Assembly: GCF_017114945.1 (NCBI RefSeq)
Contig: NZ_JABXKQ010000066.1
Coordinates: 99,242 to 131,241 of the forward strand
DNA: 32,000 nucleotides
Direction of reading: 5' to 3'
Origin: Nostoc sp. JL34
GTDB lineage: Bacteria; Cyanobacteriota; Cyanobacteriia; Cyanobacteriales; Nostocaceae
Part shown: piece after piece, positions 3,485 through 32,000 of the stretch
Layout: each line of letters opens with the position of its first letter
Position numbering within the stretch: the first letter of the stretch is position 1
The notes under the pieces: generated by a model
Database searches by the model: none
What the model was told of the DNA's origin: nothing
What the model saw: the letters and a program-made list of their open reading frames with translations, nothing else
Position numbers and translations under genes: made by a program

Positions 3485-4405
3485 ATGCCCTACCTTACTT
3501 CCGCCAGCGAAATTCGTGCCATTATCGCTGAATATACCAATGCTAAAACGCTGTGGATAGATACAGAAGTCGCTGACTATAAAAGTCGTAATCCCCGACT
3601 ATCGCTGATTCAGGTATTAGATAATCCTCAAGATATGAGTGGCGATCGCGTCTATCTTTTAGATGTCCTAGATCAGCCTAATATTATAGCTGAATTTATT
3701 GAAGAAATTATGATAAAGGCTGCCATTGAAAAAGTTTTTCACAATGCTAGTTATGATATCAAGCTTCTCGGTAACAAGAAAGCCAAAAATATAACCTGCA
3801 CTTTGGAAATGGCAAAAAAAATTCCCTACTATCTTTTACCATTACCCAACTACCAACTCAAGACTATAGCTACTGCACTTTGTAGCTTTAACAATATCGA
3901 CAAACAAGAACAAAAAAGCGATTGGGGAAAACGTCCCCTAACTGAAGAACAGATAGAGTATGCTTACTTAGATTGTATTTATCTTGCTCAAATCCACTTA
4001 AACTTGTTAGGATTACAAGCCCAAGCCAGCCCCGAACCCGCAACTGAAGACTTAATATCACTAAGTACCAGATACTCGCAACTTGAGCAGCAATGGAAGT
4101 TGTTGAATTCAGAATTTGAGCATTTGCAAGAACGGATGAAAAAAGCTATGCAAGCTCAGAATATATCTGAAACTTCTGATTATAAGCTGACTAGTTATGA
4201 GCGCACTACAGTCAAAGCTACTTTTACAGAATTGGCAAGGCTAGCACAAACTCAAGGTATTAATTTAGATTTTCCAATCACACTAACCCAGAAACTCCAA
4301 AAAGATTTAGGGCAAAATCTAGAACAACTTTCTGTGGATATTGACAAAACCACCTCTTGGCGGCTAAATACCAAAACTCAAGAGAGTCAAACTGAGGATG
4401 AGTAA
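3485..4405 (+). CDS. DEDDy-type 3'-5' exonuclease domain protein (RNase D/WRN-exo like) with C-terminal coiled-coil region
   Basis: Exo I WIDTEVAD, Exo II HNASYDIKLL and Exo III YAYLDCIYL motifs occur in the right order and spacing. Confidence 0.75.
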   Translation: MPYLTSASEIRAIIAEYTNAKTLWIDTEVADYKSRNPRLSLIQVLDNPQDMSGDRVYLLDVLDQPNIIAEFIEEIMIKAAIEKVFHNASYDIKLLGNKKAKNITCTLEMAKKIPYYLLPLPNYQLKTIATALCSFNNIDKQEQKSDWGKRPLTEEQIEYAYLDCIYLAQIHLNLLGLQAQASPEPATEDLISLSTRYSQLEQQWKLLNSEFEHLQERMKKAMQAQNISETSDYKLTSYERTTVKATFTELARLAQTQGINLDFPITLTQKLQKDLGQNLEQLSVDIDKTTSWRLNTKTQESQTEDE

Positions 4406-4638
4406 ATTGTTCATCAGGCTACAAATACCAGATTTTATAGAGTTATTGTAAAGAATAAATCTGGAAATTTTATCATTCCTGCCTCCGGCTTTTTCTTATA
4501 AATCTATAAAATATCAGGGAACTTTGTCAATTGACTTTAAACGTTTATCAAAAGTTAGAATAATTATTGAGTTAAAGAATTAAAATCTAGATTTTGGTAT
4601 TAATTCCATTCAGGTGTTATGGCAGTTTATATTAACTT

Positions 4639-5481
4639 ATGAGACGGCGTTTATTTGGGCAAAAGCGAACAAGGGTAAATACTTTATTTACCATAGCTAT
4701 TTTTACTACATTGACTGCAATTAGCAGCGTTTCTTGTAGTAAGAATGACAATGTATTGGTGACAGAAATAGGAGTTAGTCAACCTAGTCGTCGTTCAGCT
4801 ACAACTTCTAAAGGTGGAGAATTCTATATTCAGGGAAAGAATCAGCATTTAAATGGTGACTTGCAAGCTGCGATCGCTTCTTATGGTAAGGCAATTAGTC
4901 AAAATTCTCAGTATGGGGCTGCCTACAACGGTCGAGGACTAGCCTACTTTGATCTGGGAGACAAAGAAAAAGCGATCGCAGATTACAATCAAGCCCTTCG
5001 CATCAATCCTAACGACGCTGAAGCCTACAATAACTTAGGAAATGCCCGCGCTTCACTAGGAGGTAACAGAGAAGCGGTTAAAGATTACAGTGAAGCGATT
5101 CGCCTCAATCCCAACTATGCCGAAGCCTATAATAACCGGGGAAATGCCCGCGCCACCAATGGAGACAAAAAAGGGGCAATAGACGATCTTGACCAGGCGA
5201 TTCTCCTCAACCCCAAATATGCGATCGCTTATAATAACCGAGGAAATGCCCGTGCTGCCAATGGAGATCCCCAGGGGGCGATCGAAGATTATAATGAAGC
5301 TATTCGCATCAATCGTAACTTTGCCCCTGCCTACAATAACCGGGGAAATGCCCGCGCTACTAATGGAGACAAACAGGGGGCACTCAAAGACTTACAACAA
5401 GCAGCAAGCATTTTTCAAAGTCAGGGTAACAACGACTTATACCAACAAGTGATGAATAATATCAAAGAACTTGGACAGTAG
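4639..5481 (+). CDS. Exported/lipoprotein-like TPR repeat protein
   Basis: N-terminal hydrophobic segment ends in SSVSC. It is followed by at least 6 consecutive 34-aa TPR units with the recurring pattern AEAYNNRGNARAxxGDxxGAIxDxxxAIxLNP. Confidence 0.85.
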   Translation: MRRRLFGQKRTRVNTLFTIAIFTTLTAISSVSCSKNDNVLVTEIGVSQPSRRSATTSKGGEFYIQGKNQHLNGDLQAAIASYGKAISQNSQYGAAYNGRGLAYFDLGDKEKAIADYNQALRINPNDAEAYNNLGNARASLGGNREAVKDYSEAIRLNPNYAEAYNNRGNARATNGDKKGAIDDLDQAILLNPKYAIAYNNRGNARAANGDPQGAIEDYNEAIRINRNFAPAYNNRGNARATNGDKQGALKDLQQAASIFQSQGNNDLYQQVMNNIKELGQ

Positions 5482-5501
5482 GCAAAAGTAGAGCCAACAT
5501 G

Positions 5502-5650
5502 AAAAGGGCGGTTAGAAACCGCGTCTACACGAGGCTTTACCCACCTACGTGGGTTAAAAAAACCTCATTTTTCATTAGTCCGCGCAGGCGGACTTTGTTT
5601 GTGTAGCCGCGTTCACGCAGTGTGCCGCAGGCAATTCCATTCGCTAAGGC
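5502..5650 (+). repeat. Dispersed ~130-150-bp MITE-like element, copy A
   Basis: AAAAGGGCGGTTAGAAACCGCGTCTACAC...TAGTCCGCGCAGGCGGACTTTGTTTGTGTAGCCGCG...AATTCCATTCGC is collinear with 15917-16040. Copy A has an extra ~21 nt (TTCACGCAGTGTGCCGCAGGC). It contains the internal hairpin AGTCCGC/GCGGACT. Confidence 0.8.
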
Positions 5651-5680
5651 TTAAGTTTACTTGTTTATGCCTTGACAAAA

Positions 5681-7249
5681 TCACATCCCAGAACCAATGT
5701 GAATTCGATCCTCAACTTCCGCAAATTTTTCCTGTGCCTGCTGTTCAGTACTCAATAGGGAAACGACAATTGCCACAATAAACGCCAGTGGGATACTAAT
5801 TAATCCAGGATTTTTCAGCGGGAAAGGTGCAGAAGCGTGCTTGAGAATCGTTACCTGAATAGTCGGTGAGAAATAAATCAGCACTAAAGAGGAGATAGTA
5901 CCTACTAACATACTCGCAACTGCACCATTGGTAGTGAAGCGTCGCCAAAGCATTGATAAGAGCAATGCTGGGAAGTTTGCACTAGCAGCGATCGCAAATG
6001 CTAAACCTACCATATAAGCCACATTTTGCCCTTTAAACAAGATGCCCAGGAATATCGCCACTAACCCCAAAACCATTGTCGCACCACGAGCCACTTTCAG
6101 TTGTTCTGACTCGTCAGCATGACCCGATCGCACTACGTTCACCCACAAATCGTGGGACAATGCAGCCGCACCTGAGAGTGTCAACCCAGCAACAACTGCC
6201 AAAATCGTCGCAAAAGAAACAGCGGCGATAAAACCTAAGAAAGCATCACCACCGAGAAATTCTGCCAACATTGGCGCAGCCATGTTACCACCAGTACCAA
6301 TTTTCTCGATGGCATCTTTACCTACCAGTACCATCGCTCCAAAGCCCAGGATGAAGGTAAGGAGATAAAAAACGCCAATAATAGCTGTAGCGTAAGTAAC
6401 AGAGAGCCGCGCTGCTTTGGCGTCGGGTACTGTATAGAAACGCATTAGGATGTGAGGTAATCCAGCAGTGCCGAACATCAACGACATCCCTAAAGAGATA
6501 GCATCCAAGGGGTTAGAAACCAGTTTGCCCGGAGCTAATACACCTGTATACTTCTGGGATGCAGCGGCGAAAAGAGCAAGTGGGTTAAAGCCAAATTGTG
6601 CCAGTACCAAGATAGCTAGTAAGATAGTTCCGCCGAGCAACAGAACTGCTTTGATAATTTGTACCCAAGTGGTGGCAATCATCCCGCCAAAAATCACATA
6701 AGCCATCATCACGCAACCGACGATAACCACAGCTAATTCATAATCAAAGCCAAACAACAGTTTGATTAGCTCTCCAGCGCCTACCATTTGGGCAATTAAG
6801 TAAAAGCTAATCACTACCAGCGTTCCGATCGCAGATGCGATCCGTACAGGTTTTTGCTGCAAGCGATAAGCCACTACATCGGCAAAAGTGTATTTACCTA
6901 AGTTACGTAGTGGTTCGGCAATTAGGAACATGACAATCGGCCAACCCACCAGGAAGCCGATAGAATAAATTAAGCCGTCAAAACCGTTGAGTGCCACCAG
7001 CCCAGCAATACCTAAAAAGCTAGCTGCACTCATAAAGTCTCCTGCTAGGGCCAGCCCATTTTGGAAACCGCTGATTTTACCGCCAGCTGTATAGAACTGT
7101 GCCGTATTTTTGGTCAGCTTTGCTGCCCAATAGGTAATGCCTAAAGAACTGACAACAAACAGAAAAAAGAAAGCGATCGCCAACGGGTTAAACTTACCAA
7201 GATTGGTAATATCCGCCGCTAATAGCGGATCGAACCACACACTATTCAT
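5681..7249 (-). CDS. actP: Cation/acetate symporter, sodium:solute symporter family
   Basis: 522-aa polytopic membrane protein. It lies immediately downstream of a DUF485/YjcH-type gene, as in the E. coli yjcH-actP arrangement. The overall sequence pattern is SSS-family. Confidence 0.8.
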
Positions 7250-15916: not shown

Positions 15917-16040
15917 AAAAGGGCGGTTATAAACCGCAGCTACACAGACAAAACCCACCTCCGTGGGTTTCAAACCCTCAATTTTCCTTAGTCCGCAGAG
16001 GCGGACTTTGTTTGTGTAGCCGCGAATTCCATTCGCCTTG
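15917..16040 (+). repeat. Dispersed MITE-like element, copy B
   Basis: AAAAGGGCGGTTATAAACCGCAGCTACAC...TAGTCCGCAGAGGCGGACTTTGTTTGTGTAGCCGCGAATTCCATTCGCC. Same orientation as copy A. It sits directly upstream of the NLR operon. Confidence 0.8.
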
Positions 16041-16092
16041 GCTCTGTTAAACTGAGAACCATAAATAAAATCTCGTATACTTTGGCAAACTT

Positions 16093-16549: not shown

Positions 16550-18796
16550 ATGAGCAAAAATCACAGCCCAGAAGAAATTTTACAGAGCATTCTCCGAAAT
16601 GTACAAGTAGGCGGCAATCTGACTACAGGCGATATTACCCAAATCCTGAATTTACTGGTTATTATTCAACAGCCAGACGTTTTCAAACCAAAGGAAATTC
16701 CTCAAAATATTCCTCGTGGTAGTATAGTCAAGTTTGTTGGACGTGCTGAGACTTTAGTGAGTCTGCACGAAAGGCTACAACACAGTTCTCAAGTGGTGAT
16801 TGCTGCGATTGAGGGTATGGGAGGAGTCGGGAAAACAGAGTTAGCAACTCAGTATGCACTGATTCACCTGTTACTCAACACTTACCCAGGTGGTATCTGT
16901 TGGTTACGCGCTAGAGATGAAGATATTGGGCTTCAGATATTGCAGTTTGCCATAGCTAAGTTAGGACTAAAACCACCAGAAGATTGGGATTTACCAAAGC
17001 AAGTTGATTTTTGTTGGTCACGCTGGCACGATGGGAATGTGTTGGTAGTGCTGGATGATGTCAACGATTACCCCAAAGTAGAGCAATATTTACCACCACA
17101 ATCACCCCGGTTTAAGCTGCTAATTACCAGCAGGTTACAGTTAGATTTTTCCCAGTCATTTACTCTAGATGTTTTAAGTGAGTCCGCAGCACTGGAACTT
17201 TTACAAGAGTGGGTGGGAGCAGAAAAAGTCGCACGAGAATTAGAAGATGCCAAAGAAATTTGTCAGCGTTTAGGTTGTTTACCTTTGGCGCTGAATTTGG
17301 TGGGGAGGTATGTGAAAAAGCGGAAAATCTCTTTAGCAGAAATGTTGCGGCGGTTAGAAGAAAAAAAGTTAACTCATGAATCTTTAGCACGGGATGAAAA
17401 AGACTGCACTTGGACGCTGAATGTCAAACGAGGTGTTGCTGCTGCTTTTGAGTTAAGTTGGGAAGAATTAAATGATGATGCCAAGGAGTTAGGTGTTTTA
17501 CTGAGTTTATTTGCTTTAGCTCCTATTCCCTGGGGACTGGTAGAAAGTGTAGAAATGGGGAAAGATGCTGAACAGTTGGAAGATAGCAGAGTTGAGTTAG
17601 AGAGTTTGCATCTGCTTCAAGGTGAGGACAGCTACCAACTACATCAACTCATTCGGGAATTTTTTCAACTCAAGCAGGCTGAGTTCAATCAAGTGGAGGA
17701 ATTAAAGCGATCGCTTTGTCGGGTAATGGTAGCAGTTGCCAAAGAAATTCCTTACACCCTTACCCTGAAGCAAATTAGCGATGTCACCCCCGCTATACCT
17801 CATATAGCTGAAGTAGCGAACAATCTTATTCAATACGTCAGCGATGATGATCTAACTTTACCTTTTATTGGTAACGCTCGATTTTACCAAGGTCAAGGGT
17901 TGTATAACCAAGCTTTACCTTGGTATAACCAGTGTCTAGAAGTTACCAAAAAACGCTTAGGAGAGGAACACCCATTTGTTGCAGAAAGCCTCAACAACCT
18001 AGCTTTACTCTACGAATCTCAAGGCAGATACAGCGAAGCCGAACCTCTTTACATCCAAGATTTGGTACTCACGCGTAAGCTGCTGGGCGAAGAACATCTA
18101 GGTGTCGCCACTAGCCTCAATAACCTAGCTGTACTTTACAACTCCCAAGGCAGATACAGCGAAGCTGAACCCCTTTACATCCAAGCTTTGGCACTCACGC
18201 GTAAGCTGCTAGGCGAAGAACATCTAGATGTCGCCCAAAGCCTCAACAACCTAGCTGTACTCTACGATTACCAAAGCAGATACAGCGAAGCCGAACCCCT
18301 TCACATCCAAGCTTTAGCACTCAGGCGCAAGCTGCTAGGAGAAGAACATCCACATGTCGCCTCTAGCCTTAACAACCTTGCGGGACTCTACTTTCCCCAA
18401 GGCAGATACAGCGAAGCCGAACTCCTTTACACTCAAGCTTTGGCACTCAGGCTCAAGCTGCTGGGAGAAGAACATCCAGATGTCGCCCAAAGCCTCAACA
18501 ACCTAGGGTATCTCTACTCTTTTCAAGGCAGATACAGCGAAGCCGAACCCCTTTACATCCAAGCTTTGGCACTCAGGCGCAAGCTGCTGGGAGAAGAACA
18601 TCCATTTTTTGCCATTAGTCTTAACAATTTGGCAAAACTTTTTCACTTACAAGGAAGTTATACCGAAGCCGAACCATTGTATCTGCAAGCATTAAAGATT
18701 TTTGAGCAACAATTACCGATGAACCATCCTTGGACTGTTAAGTGTCGTGAATATCTGGCAAATCTTCGCGATCGCCTCCCTCCAAATCCAGAATAA
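16550..18796 (+). CDS. STAND NTPase of NB-ARC type with C-terminal TPR array (bacterial NLR-like)
   Basis: Walker A GMGGVGKTELA and Walker B VLVVLDDVND. NB-ARC-like helical region, then at least 6 kinesin-light-chain-type 42-aa TPR pairs (LNNLAxLYxxQGRYSEAEPLY). Only about 60 aa precede the P-loop domain. Confidence 0.9.
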   Translation: MSKNHSPEEILQSILRNVQVGGNLTTGDITQILNLLVIIQQPDVFKPKEIPQNIPRGSIVKFVGRAETLVSLHERLQHSSQVVIAAIEGMGGVGKTELATQYALIHLLLNTYPGGICWLRARDEDIGLQILQFAIAKLGLKPPEDWDLPKQVDFCWSRWHDGNVLVVLDDVNDYPKVEQYLPPQSPRFKLLITSRLQLDFSQSFTLDVLSESAALELLQEWVGAEKVARELEDAKEICQRLGCLPLALNLVGRYVKKRKISLAEMLRRLEEKKLTHESLARDEKDCTWTLNVKRGVAAAFELSWEELNDDAKELGVLLSLFALAPIPWGLVESVEMGKDAEQLEDSRVELESLHLLQGEDSYQLHQLIREFFQLKQAEFNQVEELKRSLCRVMVAVAKEIPYTLTLKQISDVTPAIPHIAEVANNLIQYVSDDDLTLPFIGNARFYQGQGLYNQALPWYNQCLEVTKKRLGEEHPFVAESLNNLALLYESQGRYSEAEPLYIQDLVLTRKLLGEEHLGVATSLNNLAVLYNSQGRYSEAEPLYIQALALTRKLLGEEHLDVAQSLNNLAVLYDYQSRYSEAEPLHIQALALRRKLLGEEHPHVASSLNNLAGLYFPQGRYSEAELLYTQALALRLKLLGEEHPDVAQSLNNLGYLYSFQGRYSEAEPLYIQALALRRKLLGEEHPFFAISLNNLAKLFHLQGSYTEAEPLYLQALKIFEQQLPMNHPWTVKCREYLANLRDRLPPNPE
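17963..18718 (+). repeat. Six tandem 126-bp coding repeats (42-aa TPR pairs) of very high mutual identity
   Basis: Units start at 17963, 18089, 18215, 18341, 18467 and 18593. Long stretches such as GGCAGATACAGCGAAGCCGAACCCCTTTACATCCAAGCTTTGGCACTCA recur nearly verbatim. Confidence 0.9.
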
Positions 18797-18862: not shown

Positions 18863-18896
18863 TTGAATAAGTAAAAATGCCTGATTACTTATTCAA
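18863..18896. terminator. AT-rich hairpin between the NLR gene and the minus-strand repeat ORFs (possible bidirectional terminator)
   Basis: 11-bp stem TTGAATAAGTA / TACTTATTCAA with a 12-nt loop. Low G+C, so the call is weak. Confidence 0.35.
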
Positions 18897-19090
18897 AAGT
18901 AGCTTTTACTTCCTCAAAAGCAGCTTTCAATTTCGCATTTTAGTGTTTTCCACAAGCAAAAGCAGCTTTTACTTTCTCAAAAGCAGCTTTTAATCTCGCA
19001 TTTTAGTGTTTTCCACAAACAAAAGCAGCTTTTGCTTTCTCATTTTGGTGTTTGACGCAAGCAAAAGCAGCTTTTACTTTCTCAAACCCC
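18896..19090. repeat. Tandem repeat of 62/63/42/~28 bp built on the core AAAAGCAGCTTTT
   Basis: Units at 18896-18957, 18958-19020, 19021-19062 (lacks an internal 21 nt) and 19063-19090. The core occurs 7 times. Confidence 0.85.
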
Positions 19091-23550: not shown

Positions 23551-23599
23551 TGGCATTGATTTTTTTAAAAAAATATTTTTTTTAAAAAAATCAATGCCA
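23551..23599. promoter_or_regulatory. 49-bp near-perfect AT-rich palindrome in a divergent promoter region
   Basis: TGGCATTGATTTTTTTAAA (23551-23569) is the exact reverse complement of 23581-23599. The central AAAATATTTTT is itself nearly symmetric. It lies 52 nt upstream of the kinase ATG. Confidence 0.6.
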
Positions 23600-26938: not shown

Positions 26939-28447
26939 GTGAATTTACCATTGATTATTCGTGCTGAAGAACACAACGATAAAACAGCGATTCTCGTTCC
27001 GAGAGGCTGCGCCAACGCGACAACGGATGGAGCATTTAGCTATCAGGATTTGCTCCACACTTCCAGTCAAATAGCGACAAGTCTTCTTCAAAATGCAGAA
27101 GATTTACAGGAACAGCTAGTTGCCTTTCTCATCCCGCCTGGGTTTGAGTATGTAGCCACTCAATGGGGAATTTGGCGGGCTGGTGGTATAGCTGTACCTC
27201 TGTGTATATCCCACCCGCGACCAGAATTGGAGTATGTAATTACTAATTCGGGAGCATCGATTATTGTTGCTCATCCTAATTTTGAGGATATACTGCGAGC
27301 GATCGCTACTGAACACAATTTGCGATTTATCCCCACTTCAGAAACACTCCCATCTAATATTGGTCGCCTCCCAGAGGTAGATATCACTAGACGCGCCTTA
27401 ATTCTCTACACCAGCGGTACAACGGGTAAACCAAAGGGTGTAGTTACGACTCACCAAAATATTCAAGCGCAAGTTACTAGCTTGGTTACCGCTTGGGAAT
27501 GGACATCTAGCGATCGCATTTTACATATCCTGCCCCTACATCATATTCATGGAATTATTAACGTACTGACTTGTGCTTTATGGGCTGGGGCGGAGTGCCA
27601 TATATTGAGCAAATTTGATGCAGAAACCGTTTGGAACCGAATTTGTGACGATGACTTAACCCTATTTATGGCAGTACCAACCATTTATGTAAAGCTAATT
27701 GCTGCTTGGGAAACTGCCTCTATGGAACGCCAAAAAAGGATGTCAGAAGGCTGTGCTAAAATGCGTCTGATGGTTTCTGGCTCGGCAGCATTACCAGTTC
27801 AAGTTTTAGAAAAGTGGCAGACTATCAGCGGCCATTTTCTGCTAGAACGCTATGGTATGACCGAAATCGGTATGGCACTATCCAATCCTTTACATGGTGA
27901 ACGGTTGTCTGGATATGTTGGTAAACCTCTACCTCAAGTTGAAGTAAGATTAGTAGATGAGAACGGAGAGTTAGTTTCACCCGGAACCCCAGGAGAGATC
28001 CAAGTGAAAGGCCCTGGAGTGTTTCTAGAATATTGGCAAAACCCTGAAGCAACCGCCAAAGCCTTCCAAGATGGCTGGTTCCGTACTGGAGATACCGCCG
28101 TAGTTGAGAACGACAACTACCGAATTCTGGGACGGATGAGCGTAGATATCATCAAAACTGGAGGGTATAAAGTTTCAGCTTTAGAAATTGAAGAGGTATT
28201 GCGATCGCATCCAAATATTCAGGAATGTGCAGTGGTTGGGGTTGCTGATTTAGAGTGGGGTGAACGGGTGTGTGCCGCGTTAGTATTGCAAGGTTCACAA
28301 CCTTTAACATTACAAGCTTTCAGGAGTTGGGCAAAAGAGCGATTGGCTGTTTATAAAGTGCCAACCCAAATTTTGATAGTTGAAGAATTACCGCGTAATG
28401 CGATGGGGAAAGTGACTAAGCCGACGGTGGTTGAGCTATTTTGCTGA
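26939..28447 (+). CDS. AMP-dependent acyl-CoA synthetase/ligase (MatB/ACSF3-like)
   Basis: GTG start. AMP-binding signature LYTSGTTGKPKGV, plus GEIQVKGPGVFLEYW, WFRTGD and a C-terminal GKVTK lysine motif. Confidence 0.9.
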   Translation: MNLPLIIRAEEHNDKTAILVPRGCANATTDGAFSYQDLLHTSSQIATSLLQNAEDLQEQLVAFLIPPGFEYVATQWGIWRAGGIAVPLCISHPRPELEYVITNSGASIIVAHPNFEDILRAIATEHNLRFIPTSETLPSNIGRLPEVDITRRALILYTSGTTGKPKGVVTTHQNIQAQVTSLVTAWEWTSSDRILHILPLHHIHGIINVLTCALWAGAECHILSKFDAETVWNRICDDDLTLFMAVPTIYVKLIAAWETASMERQKRMSEGCAKMRLMVSGSAALPVQVLEKWQTISGHFLLERYGMTEIGMALSNPLHGERLSGYVGKPLPQVEVRLVDENGELVSPGTPGEIQVKGPGVFLEYWQNPEATAKAFQDGWFRTGDTAVVENDNYRILGRMSVDIIKTGGYKVSALEIEEVLRSHPNIQECAVVGVADLEWGERVCAALVLQGSQPLTLQAFRSWAKERLAVYKVPTQILIVEELPRNAMGKVTKPTVVELFC

Positions 28448-28567
28448 TAGCGATCGTTAACGCCCAATTGGGCTTGTCCTCTCCGAGATTCTTGTGCAGC
28501 ACATGAGCGGGTAGGCGGTGACTCACGCGCAGTTCTTGCAAGATTGACTTCGGGTTCTGAGCAAGAG

Positions 28568-28653
28568 GCCTGACAAGTCGATGAAGCGGACGGACGAAAT
28601 ATGTTGGTAAGGCTGCTGACGTTGCTTGCCGCCGCTTATCTTAGTCGTTAGAT
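28568..28653 (+). other. attC-like 86-nt imperfect palindrome, site 1
   Basis: Starts GCCTGAC and ends GTTAGAT (GTTRRRY). 12-bp stem gat-G-aagcgg-A-cgg / ccg-ccgctt-atc with two bulged bases on the 5' arm and unpaired spacers of 5 and 6 nt next to the terminal boxes. Confidence 0.5.
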
Positions 28654-28828
28654 TGCCAGATCACAGAAATTCAAAAGGCTTGATAGATCAAAATATGATC
28701 GCTCTTCCCTAACTGGTTCCTCACCTTTTTGGGGTATCCTTCGGTGTTTTGAGTGGATACCAGAAGAGGTTTTACTGGATAAGTGATCTCTTCGGATAAC
28801 ATGAGAAAGTCAACAGCTTAATGCCAAT

Positions 28829-29302
28829 ATGAGCGAAACTGTTTACATCGAAACCAGTATTGTTGGCTACTTGACTGCTAGACCCAGCAACAACTTGATT
28901 CTGATGGCTAATTTAGAAGCTACGCGGGAATGGTGGGACACACGTCGCGATCAGTTTATGCTCTACATTTCTCAAGTGGTTTTGGATGAAGTAGCACGAG
29001 GCGATACAGAGATAGCAACAAAGCGACTTGAAATAGTGCGTGATTTTCCTTTGCTTGAAGTAAGTGAAGCTGTTCAAAATTTAGCAGCACAATTTATCGC
29101 AAAAAGTAGCCTTCCACCGAAAGCCGCTGACGATGCGCTTCATATTGCTGCGGCTACAGTTTACGGATTGGACTATCTGTTAACGTGGAACTGTAAACAT
29201 ATTGCTAATGCTCAAATCCAAAAAAAGCTAGCCCAAATCAGTCTTGATGCCGGATACGAGTTGCCAACCCTTTGTACACCCTACGAACTAATGGGAGAGT
29301 AG
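28829..29302 (+). CDS. PIN-domain protein (VapC-like toxin candidate)
   Basis: 157 aa. VYIETSIV N-terminus, LDEV, ADDALHIAAA and LLTWNCKHI blocks sit where PIN acidic/Asn residues occur. Confidence 0.6.
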   Translation: MSETVYIETSIVGYLTARPSNNLILMANLEATREWWDTRRDQFMLYISQVVLDEVARGDTEIATKRLEIVRDFPLLEVSEAVQNLAAQFIAKSSLPPKAADDALHIAAATVYGLDYLLTWNCKHIANAQIQKKLAQISLDAGYELPTLCTPYELMGE

Positions 29303-29304
29303 AT

Positions 29305-29496
29305 ATGTGGAAAGATGAAATTCTTGAAGAGATTTATAGAATACGAGAAGAACATGCAAAGGCTTTCAACTACAACTTACAAGCAATTTGTGATGATTTG
29401 AGACAAAAGCAAGCTGCAAGTAATCGGCAGATCATTTCACAGCCACTCAAACAATCCAGTGAGCAAGATAGCAAGTCGCAATACCCAACTAACTAA
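29305..29496 (+). CDS. Small partner protein of the PIN gene (antitoxin candidate, unknown family)
   Basis: ATG at 29305 lies 2 nt after the PIN stop and is preceded by GGGAGAG. 63 aa, MWKDEILEEIYRIREEHAKAFNYNLQAICDDLRQKQ. The track ORF begins earlier, at an internal out-of-context start. Confidence 0.45.
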   Translation: MWKDEILEEIYRIREEHAKAFNYNLQAICDDLRQKQAASNRQIISQPLKQSSEQDSKSQYPTN

Positions 29497-29615
29497 AAGT
29501 TATCTGTTAGGTGTTGCGGTCTATCTGGGGTGAGAGGAAAGAGTTCTTGGTGTCGATTTAGTTGAAGTTTCACCAGAGGAAGTTCAGAAGGCGCTCCTTG
29601 GTTTTTAGCTGCCTC

Positions 29616-29701
29616 GCCTAACAAACGCTTGCACCGGACGGTCGATATACGCTGATGCTGAGTTACACTTTATCTGCCGTCGGTGAAGCTAGCCGTTAGA
29701 C
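29616..29701 (+). other. attC-like 86-nt imperfect palindrome, site 2
   Basis: Starts GCCTAAC (RYYYAAC) and ends GTTAGAC (GTTRRRY), pairing 6/7. 13-bp stem gctt-G-cacc-G-gacgg / ccgtc-ggtg-aagc with two bulged G on the 5' arm. Same length and orientation as site 1. Confidence 0.55.
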
Positions 29702-29762
29702 TACCAACCCGCATTATATCGAAGGGATTAAGCAATCAAAGAAGGAGCGCCTACCTAATTTC

Positions 29763-32000
29763 TCACCCCTTTGGTGTTTTGGGCGGACACCAAAAGAGAT
29801 TTTTACTAGACACACCAAGGGATTCCAAAATTCCTCGCATTACCTCTGTGCAGTACATCCAGTGTCCCAAATCGTCATACATGCGATCGGGATTAAACTC
29901 GACATTGTAATGCAGCACATTGGGAAGGTCTAAAAACTGATCATCGCTTTGGCGAGAAAGAAGCAAGAGATGAAATGGCTTCCCCTGGCATTGTTTTTCC
30001 AGCTTGTTCACCAAATCTATCACACCACCGCGATCGCTAATTCCTGTGCGGACAAAAAGTACTTTGTCGCAATGCCGCAGTGCGTACCAAAACCTTTCAG
30101 AGCGCGCTGTGTACCGAACGCGCATCCGTTCATGGACGGGAGACATATCGCCCGTTGGGTCGTCTGTCTCTTCAACTTCATGGGCAAAGGATAAACCTGA
30201 CCACTTACTATGGTAAATTCTGCCTGCTTCTAGGCTGTAGTGGAGGAAGGCAGGGTTCCACATATCAGCAAAACCGTTTTCGATCGCATCTGCAACATCT
30301 GCAATATTGGTGGTGCGTGTCAAATCAAAGGGAAAGGCGGGGCCATCATACTCCATTTTATACAGCATCATGCGGACGGCACAGCGATCGCCAAGGGGAA
30401 GAATCGCCACACGGCTGATATCCGATAATTCACATTTGTATCGGAAAAACACCGCAGACTTAGGTGGTGCTTTCACCCGGCTTTCTAGCCCATCCTTACC
30501 AATCATCATCGTGCGAAAAGGGACATCGGGATAAAGCGGATCTTCATAAACACCCGATGGCATAGCTTTAAGTGCGTTGCAAACCTCCGTCCACATCGGC
30601 TGGATGTTGTACTCGTTATCTGATTCGTTGATTATCCAGATGTGGCGATCGTCCGCTTGCAAAATCCCCAGATGTCCGTCATAGAATAAAACGTTGTTCT
30701 GCGAAAAGAGATTGAAGGCGGCGCTATATTCTAGATCGGTATTAGGGGGGATGTTTATTGTAGTTGCGATCGCGCCATCCTCTTGCACGGCAAAGAAAGG
30801 GAGTGTTCCTGGCTTGACAGACTTCGCAATGTAAATACCTGGTATCAATCCTGCCTGACTTTGTAGTACAGTTTGTAGTTTGTGCCAATAGGGAGCGATC
30901 GTGTAGCTGTATTGCGATGTATTAACAATCCGTAAACGCTTTTCTTCTATACAGACAGAGACATGAAAGCCTCCATTATCAAAGTAGATGGGAAATTCAT
31001 TCGGTTGCTGGAAGCGTTGTTTTTCTTTTGCTAATTCGTCTTTGTCGATGTCGAATAAATGGTGGTCGATCTGCTGATACATGAGGCTGTGACCGACTGT
31101 ATTCGGGTGAGCCTGATCAAATGATGTCCCCGCTTTCCATCGTCCTTGCCCATCATCCAGGGCTGTGAACCAATCCAGTACAGTCACGCCCCAACTTAGC
31201 ATCCGTTTGTGTGTGTCTCGGATCAGCCGGTAATGTTCTAAGGAATAATCACCGTTGGGATAGACTCCGCCTAGAATCGGGATTGCTCCGATGTCGCGGG
31301 TCATTTTCACAAGCTGCTGCAAGCCACTTTCAAACCGCCGCTGTACTGCCCGCCGTTCATGAGGGGAACAGTAAGCTAACCCTTCGTTACCCAGAGATAG
31401 GGCAATGATGACGATATCCGGTTTTTCTGGGGTGACAAACCAGGGGAATCGAGCGATCGTTCTGCTGACATTCGCCCCCACCTCCGACACATTTACGAGT
31501 TGATGCCCATATTTTTGCTGTAAAGCCTGTGCCAATAGCCAGACCCAACCTTGCAAAAACCAGGCTTTATGACCTAATGCAACGGAACTACCAATGACTA
31601 CGATTTTTAACCCTTCAGACTCTTCATCTAGGGGTCTTTTAACAGCAGGCTTCTCAAGGTATCCAAAGGGGTAAGGTTGTAAATAACCGAATGCACCATC
31701 ATCCACAATAATTGTGTTGGAATGATCCTTATGATCAACCGGAATCCATCGGTTTATATCTCCTAAGCTCTCCCATCGGGCGTTGCCGTTTGCATCGAGA
31801 AGCACGTACTTATACTCAACTCTTTGGAGATTGCCTGAGTCTTGAATGTCAATATCTATCCACCATAAAGGATAGCGATCGCTACTTGTACGCAGATTCA
31901 CACATTTTCTGATATCCCAAAATCCCAACTCTGGAGTAGAACCGACAAGACCAATGGATTCGCCCGTTTGAGTGTATGCACTGATCTGGAATCGATACAT
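29763..32000 (-). CDS. Multidomain protein: N-terminal CBM20 starch-binding module - SGNH/GDSL-like hydrolase - unknown middle region - C-terminal DUF1796 (papain-like fold) domain
   Basis: The ATG is exactly at the window edge. CBM20 pattern: GESIGLVGSTPELGFW...YPLWW...VEYKYVLLDANGNARWE..NR. SGNH blocks: VVIGSSVALG, LSLGNEGL, DQAHPN. DUF1796-like: ILPLGDRCAVRMMLYKMEYDGPAFPFDL. Confidence 0.8.
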   Translation of the reverse strand: MYRFQISAYTQTGESIGLVGSTPELGFWDIRKCVNLRTSSDRYPLWWIDIDIQDSGNLQRVEYKYVLLDANGNARWESLGDINRWIPVDHKDHSNTIIVDDGAFGYLQPYPFGYLEKPAVKRPLDEESEGLKIVVIGSSVALGHKAWFLQGWVWLLAQALQQKYGHQLVNVSEVGANVSRTIARFPWFVTPEKPDIVIIALSLGNEGLAYCSPHERRAVQRRFESGLQQLVKMTRDIGAIPILGGVYPNGDYSLEHYRLIRDTHKRMLSWGVTVLDWFTALDDGQGRWKAGTSFDQAHPNTVGHSLMYQQIDHHLFDIDKDELAKEKQRFQQPNEFPIYFDNGGFHVSVCIEEKRLRIVNTSQYSYTIAPYWHKLQTVLQSQAGLIPGIYIAKSVKPGTLPFFAVQEDGAIATTINIPPNTDLEYSAAFNLFSQNNVLFYDGHLGILQADDRHIWIINESDNEYNIQPMWTEVCNALKAMPSGVYEDPLYPDVPFRTMMIGKDGLESRVKAPPKSAVFFRYKCELSDISRVAILPLGDRCAVRMMLYKMEYDGPAFPFDLTRTTNIADVADAIENGFADMWNPAFLHYSLEAGRIYHSKWSGLSFAHEVEETDDPTGDMSPVHERMRVRYTARSERFWYALRHCDKVLFVRTGISDRGGVIDLVNKLEKQCQGKPFHLLLLSRQSDDQFLDLPNVLHYNVEFNPDRMYDDLGHWMYCTEVMRGILESLGVSSKNLFWCPPKTPKG

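Follow-up and report, generated by a model that had tools for sequence, protein, structure and literature searches.

We report that a 32,000-nucleotide stretch of DNA from Nostoc sp. JL34, hereafter referred to as the window, carries two 86-nucleotide (nt) sites that are members of the cyanobacterial family of attC sites, the recombination sites of integrons, and we regard this identification as firm. The two sites are oriented in the same direction as a PIN-domain toxin gene and a 63-amino acid (aa) open reading frame (ORF), which they bracket (Table 1). No integron integrase (IntI) lies nearby, and the region is very probably a small cluster of attC sites lacking integron-integrase (CALIN), as defined by Cury et al. 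2016 (PMC4889954), in the Nostoc chromosome, with the PIN cassette between its intact sites. The original prediction for this DNA had proposed two co-oriented 86-nt sites flanking the PIN pair, had read them as attC sites without a nearby integrase, and had pointed to CALINs as a known class; the sites and their reading are borne out by the analyses described below. Thus, integron sites were recognized from raw sequence in a phylum whose integrons have been little studied. No established concept is changed by this, as CALINs, toxin-antitoxin (TA) cassettes and cyanobacterial integrons were already known.

The identification of the sites as attC follows from their membership in a family, the occurrence of that family in arrays adjacent to IntI genes, covariation within it, and a precise cassette indel at the GTTA of its R' boxes. 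For family membership, we constructed a covariance model (R1) from 50 distinct attC sites of other cyanobacteria, with no sequence from the window, and ran it on the window unfiltered. The model matched exactly 28568-28653 (site 1; full length, 73.1 bits, E 2e-17) and exactly 29616-29701 (site 2; full length, 58 bits, E 3e-13), a significant result at both sites in a covariance-model check of the kind that the original prediction had proposed. The next best match in the 32 kb has 12.4 bits (E 0.55), and the model revealed no further copies of the site family in the window. attC sites of IntI-bearing loci score 49-78 bits with the same model, and both window sites lie inside this range. Likewise, a sequence-only hidden Markov model (HMM), made from 8 attC sites of three integrase-bearing integrons and again without window sequence, found site 1 (E 9e-15), site 2 (E 4e-7) and nothing else in the window. 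The 4227 families of Rfam gave no match to the sites at gathering or E ≤ 1 thresholds. A strict finder based on regular expressions and pairing was discarded; it missed site 1, which has GAC in its R'' box, and returned two low-scoring false matches.

The same family is found where integrases are present. When site 1 with its flanks was compared by blastn with 7.3 Gb of plasmid sequence, a single match was obtained, covering the site only, on plasmid pB of Kovacikia minuta. This match lies within a row of co-oriented small genes, each followed by a site of about 86 nt with the same layout, and 8 kb from an annotated integron integrase (L023/L024) that scores 468 bits against TIGR02249 (cut-off 265). 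Sites of the family also follow each cassette, in the same orientation, at the IntI loci of Leptolyngbya FACHB-541 (L025) and Chroococcidiopsis (L026 and L027), and site 1 is close to the first attC of the Leptolyngbya integron. The Chroococcidiopsis loci, from two strains, differ from one another by a 583-bp acetyltransferase cassette in L027 relative to L026. The edges of this cassette fall inside the GTTA of two R' boxes, the hallmark of a cassette inserted or removed by an integrase. Site 1 is furthermore 80-84% identical to attC sites of metagenomic multi-attC arrays, and the likeness ends at the attC ends. Integrase homologues are common in cyanobacteria. The window sites share their family with the arrays of Kovacikia, Leptolyngbya, Chroococcidiopsis, Nodosilinea and Calothrix and differ from them in that the window has neither an integrase nor an array; this family is presumably the one described by the taxon-specific cyanobacterial attC model (Cury 2016; Ghaly et al. 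2021, PMC8352920).

Both sites can be laid out on the published geometry of attC, in which an unpaired central spacer of about 5-6 nt between the R and L boxes is a defining feature, and a 6-bp stem separates the extrahelical bases at positions 16 and 23/24, one of which is a conserved bottom-strand T; the first extrahelical base on the bottom strand is usually, but not obligatorily, G (PMC5027507). The 5' arm of site 1 consists of R'' GCCTGAC, spacer AAGTC, GAT, bulged G16, AAGCGG, bulged A23 and CGG, and its 3' arm of CCG, CCGCTT, ATC, spacer TTAGTC and R' GTTAGAT. The corresponding elements of site 2 are R'' GCCTAAC, spacer AAACG, CTT, bulged G16, CACCGG, bulged A23 and CGG, followed by CCG, TCGGTG, AAG, spacer CTAGCC and R' GTTAGAC. 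An unpaired central spacer is thus present on each arm of both sites. The boxes of site 2 fit both RYYYAAC and GTTRRRY, and those of site 1 are still able to pair, with a G at position 5 of R'' that forms a G.T pair with the partner box. In the family register, G16 and A23 are the bulged bases of both sites, with 6 bp between them, on the arm that carries AAC. G occupies nt 16 (column 17 of alignment A3) in 49/50 family members and A occupies nt 23 in 48/50, counted on the top strand, and the top-strand A23 of the two window sites corresponds to T23 of the bottom strand. The original prediction was right about the terminal boxes, about unpaired spacers of 4-6 nt, and about the G at position 5 of site 1. 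It had also placed two single-base bulges on the 5' arm of each site, the first at nt 16, which is correct; its second bulge in site 2, at G21, has to be replaced by A23 beside a G.T pair. As to its remark that the bulged bases are not canonical, the bottom strand would have C at position 16 and has the conserved T at position 23.

The proposed pairing is kept in 86% of cells of alignment A3, which contains the 50 sites. None of 500 shuffles reached this level, and controls with slid pairing were 27-48% paired. The inner helix (helix 2) is 91.5% paired, with compensatory changes in 10 of its 12 pairs. An early analysis of five Kovacikia sites with MAFFT and RNAalifold recovered the outer pairs alone and was superseded by the 50-site alignment. 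Folding energies were also tried and rejected as a test: z-scores were weak for the sites and for their 240-250-nt contexts, and such energies are uninformative for short bulged stems. The claim that structure rather than sequence is conserved between the two sites was overstated, as they are 60-69% identical; ungapped, they share 52 of 86 bases (22 ± 4 expected by chance), and their gapped identity is 69%.

Compared with the attC sites of class 1 and Vibrio integrons, such as attC-aadA7 and VCR (PMC5027507), the cyanobacterial sites have the same RYYYAAC/GTTRRRY boxes, 4-6 nt unpaired spacer, 3-bp L box, extrahelical positions 16 and 23 on the AAC arm with a 6-bp stem between them, bottom-strand T as the second extrahelical base, variable terminal loop, and position at the 3' end of the cassette. 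They differ in having C rather than the usual G as the first extrahelical base of the bottom strand, in a nearly fixed length (86 ± 2 nt), and in considerable sequence conservation (TAACAA..TG.A.CGGACG..). This C may be characteristic of the attC/IntI lineage of cyanobacteria, and sites 1 and 2 provide a pair of substrates for asking if cyanobacterial integrases accept it.

The PIN gene between the sites matches PF01850 with 27.1 bits (cut-off 23.6), and its homologues are named VapC family toxin in the sources. The protein has 6684 homologues, the best 120 of which are 83-100% identical to it and come from many cyanobacterial orders. We fetched 80 homologous PIN loci from reference genomes and found that an attC begins 624-638 nt after the PIN ATG in 34 of them, on the same strand and abutting or overlapping the partner ORF. 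At least two attC sites are present in 11 PIN loci, and IntI remnants occur in two, L073 and L107. Given the fixed offset of the attC, the multi-attC arrays and the intI remnants, the PIN gene and its partner are a widely circulating integron cassette of cyanobacteria, in agreement with the proposal that this TA-type pair is cassette-borne. PIN paralogue cassettes with intact attC sites are also found at the Nostoc loci L087, L091 and L097. The 63-aa partner ORF lies 3' of the PIN gene in every homologous locus inspected. It has no match in Pfam, NCBIfam or PADLOC, and is presumably the antitoxin. The pair does not have the organization of VapBC, since the partner is downstream and has no recognizable DNA-binding domain.

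TA cassettes are typical of chromosomal integrons (PMC11023631). Like those of sedentary integrons such as the V. cholerae superintegron (PMC11023631), the PIN cassette is a two-gene toxin module co-oriented with its attC, and the PIN module occurs in arrays together with other TA cassettes (Zeta, BrnT and HepT/MNT in Chroococcidiopsis L026). Unlike them, it has the toxin gene first and the partner second, no known antitoxin family is matched, and the cassette in Nostoc is solitary, domesticated and not stabilizing a large array. We also sought a conserved cassette leader in other genera, using the leader, the hairpin element within it (Table 1) and the DNA upstream of the sites; the leader was matched by close Nostoc relatives only, and metagenomic relatives match the attC alone, without leader, hairpin element or upstream DNA. 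Two of the PIN loci have further features of their own. Locus L107 (Calothrix sp. CSU_2_0) contains a four-attC array with integrase fragments at 5175-5504 and 6888-7109 (minus strand), one on either side of the PIN cassette; these fragments are not colinear, and the locus is a degraded, rearranged integron in a member of the Nostocales. In L073, a repeat of ~34 nt (TACGGAAAGTTTCGGGGTAATTCCGGTAAAAGGGG) occurs at 3990-4160 in four direct copies and one inverted copy, between the intI remnant and the first attC, and these copies could be the integrase-binding repeats of an attI region.

In the closest attC-bearing relatives (L041, L044 and L045), the attC of the PIN cassette starts 637-638 nt after the ATG. 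A vestigial attC in the window starts at the PIN ATG + 637, where the window reads ATAGCAAGTCGCAATACCCAAC...GGGGTGAGAGGAAAGAGTTCTTGG and L044 reads ATAACAAGTCGCTGCACCCGACCGG...CGGCGGGTGAGTTTGGTCGTTAGG. A profile of the three relatives' attC sites matches 29468-29530 (envelope 29467-29549; E 5e-5), which is its only match in the window; covariance model R1 did not detect the vestigial attC at 29466-29549. Its R'' box has changed from ATAACAA to ATAGCAA, its arms are unpaired, and a box resembling R' (GTTCTTG) is found at 29543-29549. These features identify 29466-29549 as the decayed attC of the PIN cassette itself. As this vestige stands at the cassette's own offset, site 2 is not the PIN cassette's own attC; site 2 closes a separate ORF-less stretch, and the two together would make up a mini-cassette of some 150 nt. 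The 1.05-kb interval between the sites, which the original prediction had taken for one mobile cassette, is therefore composite: its cassette nature is upheld, and its unity is contradicted by the decayed third site. In the near-identical contig L003 (GCA_054880575.1), an insertion sequence (IS) of about 1.5 kb with a DDE_5 transposase (L003 10739-12256) is inserted at window position 29560-29566; the assembly is otherwise identical there. The alignments of the two flanks have 7 nt in common, which points to a target duplication.

A comparison with related genomes indicates how old this arrangement is. The order AMP-binding gene, PIN pair, CBM20 gene is also present in N. punctiforme PCC 73102 (L011), Tolypothrix brevis (L020), another Nostoc (L022) and, with an additional amidase gene, Nostoc C052 (L018). 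In the window, the last gene of this order, encoding CBM20, GDSL and DUF1796 domains, lies downstream of site 2 on the opposite strand and ends at 29763. Judging from this synteny, the PIN pair has long been fixed between the acyl-CoA synthetase and CBM20-GDSL genes. The decayed attC is recognizable in L018 and L020 and is replaced by 21-nt tandem repeats in L011, L022 and L004. These arrays (e.g., CGCCGAAATAGCAAATGAGTT) are located at 4640-4840 in L011, 10640-10843 in L004 and about 3640-3740 in L022, and they seem to have expanded from the decayed R'' region (ATAGCAA). In L018, an insertion of ~1.2 kb (about 3600-4760), apparently an IS, interrupts the partner ORF some 39 codons from its start, and the 3' part of the ORF resumes beyond. 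L004, where the same PIN protein seemed at first to lie in another context, was considered as evidence of mobility and rejected, as it represents the same locus rearranged, with 105 nt of the CBM20 3' end retained. A cassette found across many cyanobacterial orders has become a fixed chromosomal locus in Nostoc, which illustrates cassette domestication: the cassette's own attC decays or yields to short tandem repeats, and newer attC sites stand beside it.

Two stretches are specific to the lineage of the window, about 28470-28781 and 29534-29746, and an intact attC lies in the middle of each. The first begins with non-coding DNA 5' of site 1 (28470-28567) that has no ORF, no detected relative and no match in metagenomic attC loci, and that may be the remnant of an upstream cassette. 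The intact sites could have arrived as gains in this lineage, possibly at secondary sites, or they could be survivors of an eroded array. Secondary-site insertion, integrase loss and rearrangement have all been discussed as origins of CALINs (PMC4889954).

The minus strand, presumed to be the recombinogenic bottom strand, should at each site fold, when single-stranded, into the bulged hairpin that integron integrases recognize: the R boxes pair, the central spacer stays unpaired, and 6 bp lie between extrahelical bases 16 and 23. Given an IntI in trans, recombination between the two sites would be expected at the G|TT of the R' boxes, and the predicted product is an excised circle of 1044 bp (28652-29695). 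We infer that sites 1 and 2 are still recombination-competent. The current mobility of the interval is doubtful because the synteny is fixed.

As a CALIN (PMC4889954), the locus has two attC sites on the same strand, starting at 28568 and 29616 and hence 1048 nt apart, which is below the 4-kb limit, with no intI nearby; its cassette is not an antibiotic-resistance gene, and its possible origins match those discussed for CALINs. It is not a complete integron, as there is no intI and attI adjoining the array. It differs from other CALINs in being minimal, with two intact sites and one decayed site between conserved core genes, and in that related species have its main cassette fixed at this locus too, although no intact attC site is left in them.

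Several observations weigh against reading the region as a CALIN with cassette-type sites. No integrase was found in the window and 7.3 kb beyond it, about 39 kb in all, either in gene tables or by tblastn with IntI, which gave nothing better than E 0.58 on the window, L001 and L003; activity in trans can at most be presumed. The PIN pair occupies the same locus in L011, L018, L020 and L022, all of which are without an intact attC. The edges of the two lineage-specific stretches are off the G|TT crossover points, so that a clean IntI-mediated insertion of the sites is not demonstrated, and the comparison of syntenic loci proposed in the original prediction accordingly gave indel edges away from the GTT boxes. 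Among 10 near-identical contigs, the interval is not polymorphic for presence or absence, and the one exception to their uniformity here is the IS of L003. At the level of the sites, the R'' box of site 1 has G instead of A at position 5, as do 2/50 family members; both sites, like 49/50 relatives, would have C at bottom-strand position 16, where G is usual; and folding energy alone, calculated for single-stranded DNA, is unremarkable (site 1, z about 0; site 2, z -1.5 to -2.2).

A rival explanation is that the sites are inert relics in a Nostoc genome without IntI, so that the interval is immobile and matters only as a resident PIN toxin-antitoxin locus. We give this explanation a little less than an even chance. 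It would account for the lack of IntI within about 39 kb, the fixation of the PIN pair across Nostoc and Tolypothrix, the decay of that cassette's own attC, the uniformity of the 10 near-identical contigs, and the fragmentation of intI in Calothrix L107; in addition, there is no Nostoc among the top 120 IntI homologues. However, both sites score like the attC sites of integrase-bearing integrons, whereas the old attC at 29466-29549 has decayed beyond detection by the covariance model, which suggests either a recent arrival of the intact sites or ongoing constraint on them. The intact attC sites that accompany PIN paralogue cassettes at the Nostoc loci L087, L091 and L097 also argue against it. 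In another reading, a Nostoc lineage with no detectable integrase might recently have gained two intact, attC-bearing, ORF-less mini-cassettes flanking an anciently fixed TA cassette, with a cyanobacterial class of attC in which the first extrahelical base is C and not G. We consider this full scenario unlikely. If true, the recent gain of mini-cassettes would mean ongoing integron-type recombination in the Nostocales, in trans or at non-attC genomic sites, and the C-type attC class would point to a co-evolved integrase specificity.

We next consider a local segmental duplication of attC, spacer and CBM20 3' end, by which the two sites would be paralogues of one another and not the ends of independent cassettes. 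This possibility arises from a second repeat, with copies at 28706-28790 and 29746-29813, about 50-65 nt 3' of sites 1 and 2. The two copies match at 53 of 67 bases, and none of 2000 shuffles was as good. The copy 3' of site 2 codes for the conserved C-terminal end of the CBM20 protein (...LFWCPPKTPKG*) and is the source of the duplication. This C-terminus is unchanged in L011 and in L020, the latter with a single difference at a residue upstream; in L022 and L018 there is one substitution each and the frame stays open for several more codons. The DNA differences between species at this 3' end are mostly synonymous. The duplicated part consists of the last ~20 codons of the CBM20-GDSL gene, its stop codon and ~17 nt beyond. 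The upstream copy occurs also in L004 only, where it is without attC, and is absent from L011, L018, L020 and L022; it is a decaying non-coding duplicate of the neighboring gene's 3' end. In favor of a larger duplication, a copy of the CBM20 3' end follows each attC, the hairpin element is significantly duplicated, and nhmmer aligned about 200 nt of the two attC-plus-repeat copies (E 3e-14). Against it, the 69% identity between the sites is at the level of the family (median to the pool 65-66%), and 22/67 foreign attC sites are closer to site 1, and 17/67 to site 2, than the sites are to each other. Four compensatory pair changes separate the sites, and the likeness of the attC-to-element spacers is not significant, as 167/2000 shuffles score as well. 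Because the sites are no closer mutually than to foreign attC sites, the spacers show no significant similarity and the L004 copy lacks an attC, a duplication that included the attC seems improbable, and we assign a low probability to this explanation as a whole. The original prediction had named a longer duplicated element as something that would undermine it; a repeat that includes the CBM20 3'-end copy is indeed present, but it is unlikely to have carried the attC.

An unrelated structured repeat resembling attC, such as a miniature inverted-repeat transposable element (MITE), a REP-like element, a terminator or a small RNA gene, might be suspected from the repeat-rich intergenic regions of Nostoc, the weak fold z-scores and a 32-nt imperfect inverted repeat (I12; 29579-29610 / 29731-29762) around site 2, but it is extremely improbable given that each cassette of the arrays adjoining IntI has one family member, all in the same orientation, that the family bounds a precise cassette indel, and that the sites have no Rfam match and no more copies in the 32-kb window. 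The idea of a MITE derived from I12 was rejected, as site 1 has no counterpart of this inverted repeat around it.

Table 1. Coordinates of the two attC sites and associated features in the window.
Feature	Position	Strand	Basis or remark
AMP-binding acyl-CoA synthetase-like gene, upstream flanking core gene	26939..28447	+	domains; syntenic in relatives
Lineage-specific non-coding DNA 5' of site 1	28470..28567	+	relatives' homology stops between 28441 and 28469
attC site 1, intact	28568..28653	+	boxes GCCTGAC...GTTAGAT; covariance model R1 and HMM matches
Non-coding duplicate of CBM20-GDSL 3' end ("hairpin element")	28706..28790	+	within PIN leader
PIN-domain (VapC-like) gene, 157 aa	28829..29302	+	Pfam PF01850
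Small partner ORF, 63 aa, putative antitoxin, begins MWKDEILEEIYRIREEHAKAFNY...	29305..29496	+	adjacent 3' of PIN gene
Vestigial attC of PIN cassette	29466..29549	+	profile of L041/L044/L045 attC sites
ORF-less spacer, vestigial attC to site 2	29550..29615	+	specific to the window's lineage
attC site 2, intact	29616..29701	+	boxes GCCTAAC...GTTAGAC; covariance model R1 and HMM matches
3' end of CBM20-GDSL-DUF1796 gene, encoding ...GILESLGVSSKNLFWCPPKTPKG*	29763..29855	-	Pfam domains

Other repeats were observed elsewhere in the window. A dispersed repeat of ~130-150 nt is present at 5502-5651 and 15917-16043, 10.4 kb apart (families D9, D17 and D19; 74-91% identity), and contains a small hairpin, GTCCGC..GCGGAC. 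A tandem array of 126-nt units, with at least 6 copies of 66-84% identity, occupies 17832-18761 and is followed at 18894-19086 by short 63/42-nt repeats of CAAAAGCAGCTTTTACTTTCTCAAA. Finally, an AT-rich intergenic stretch includes, at 23551-23599, an inverted repeat whose 23-nt arms (TGGCATTGATTTTTTTAAAAAAA / TTTTTTTAAAAAAATCAATGCCA) match perfectly around a loop of 3 nt.

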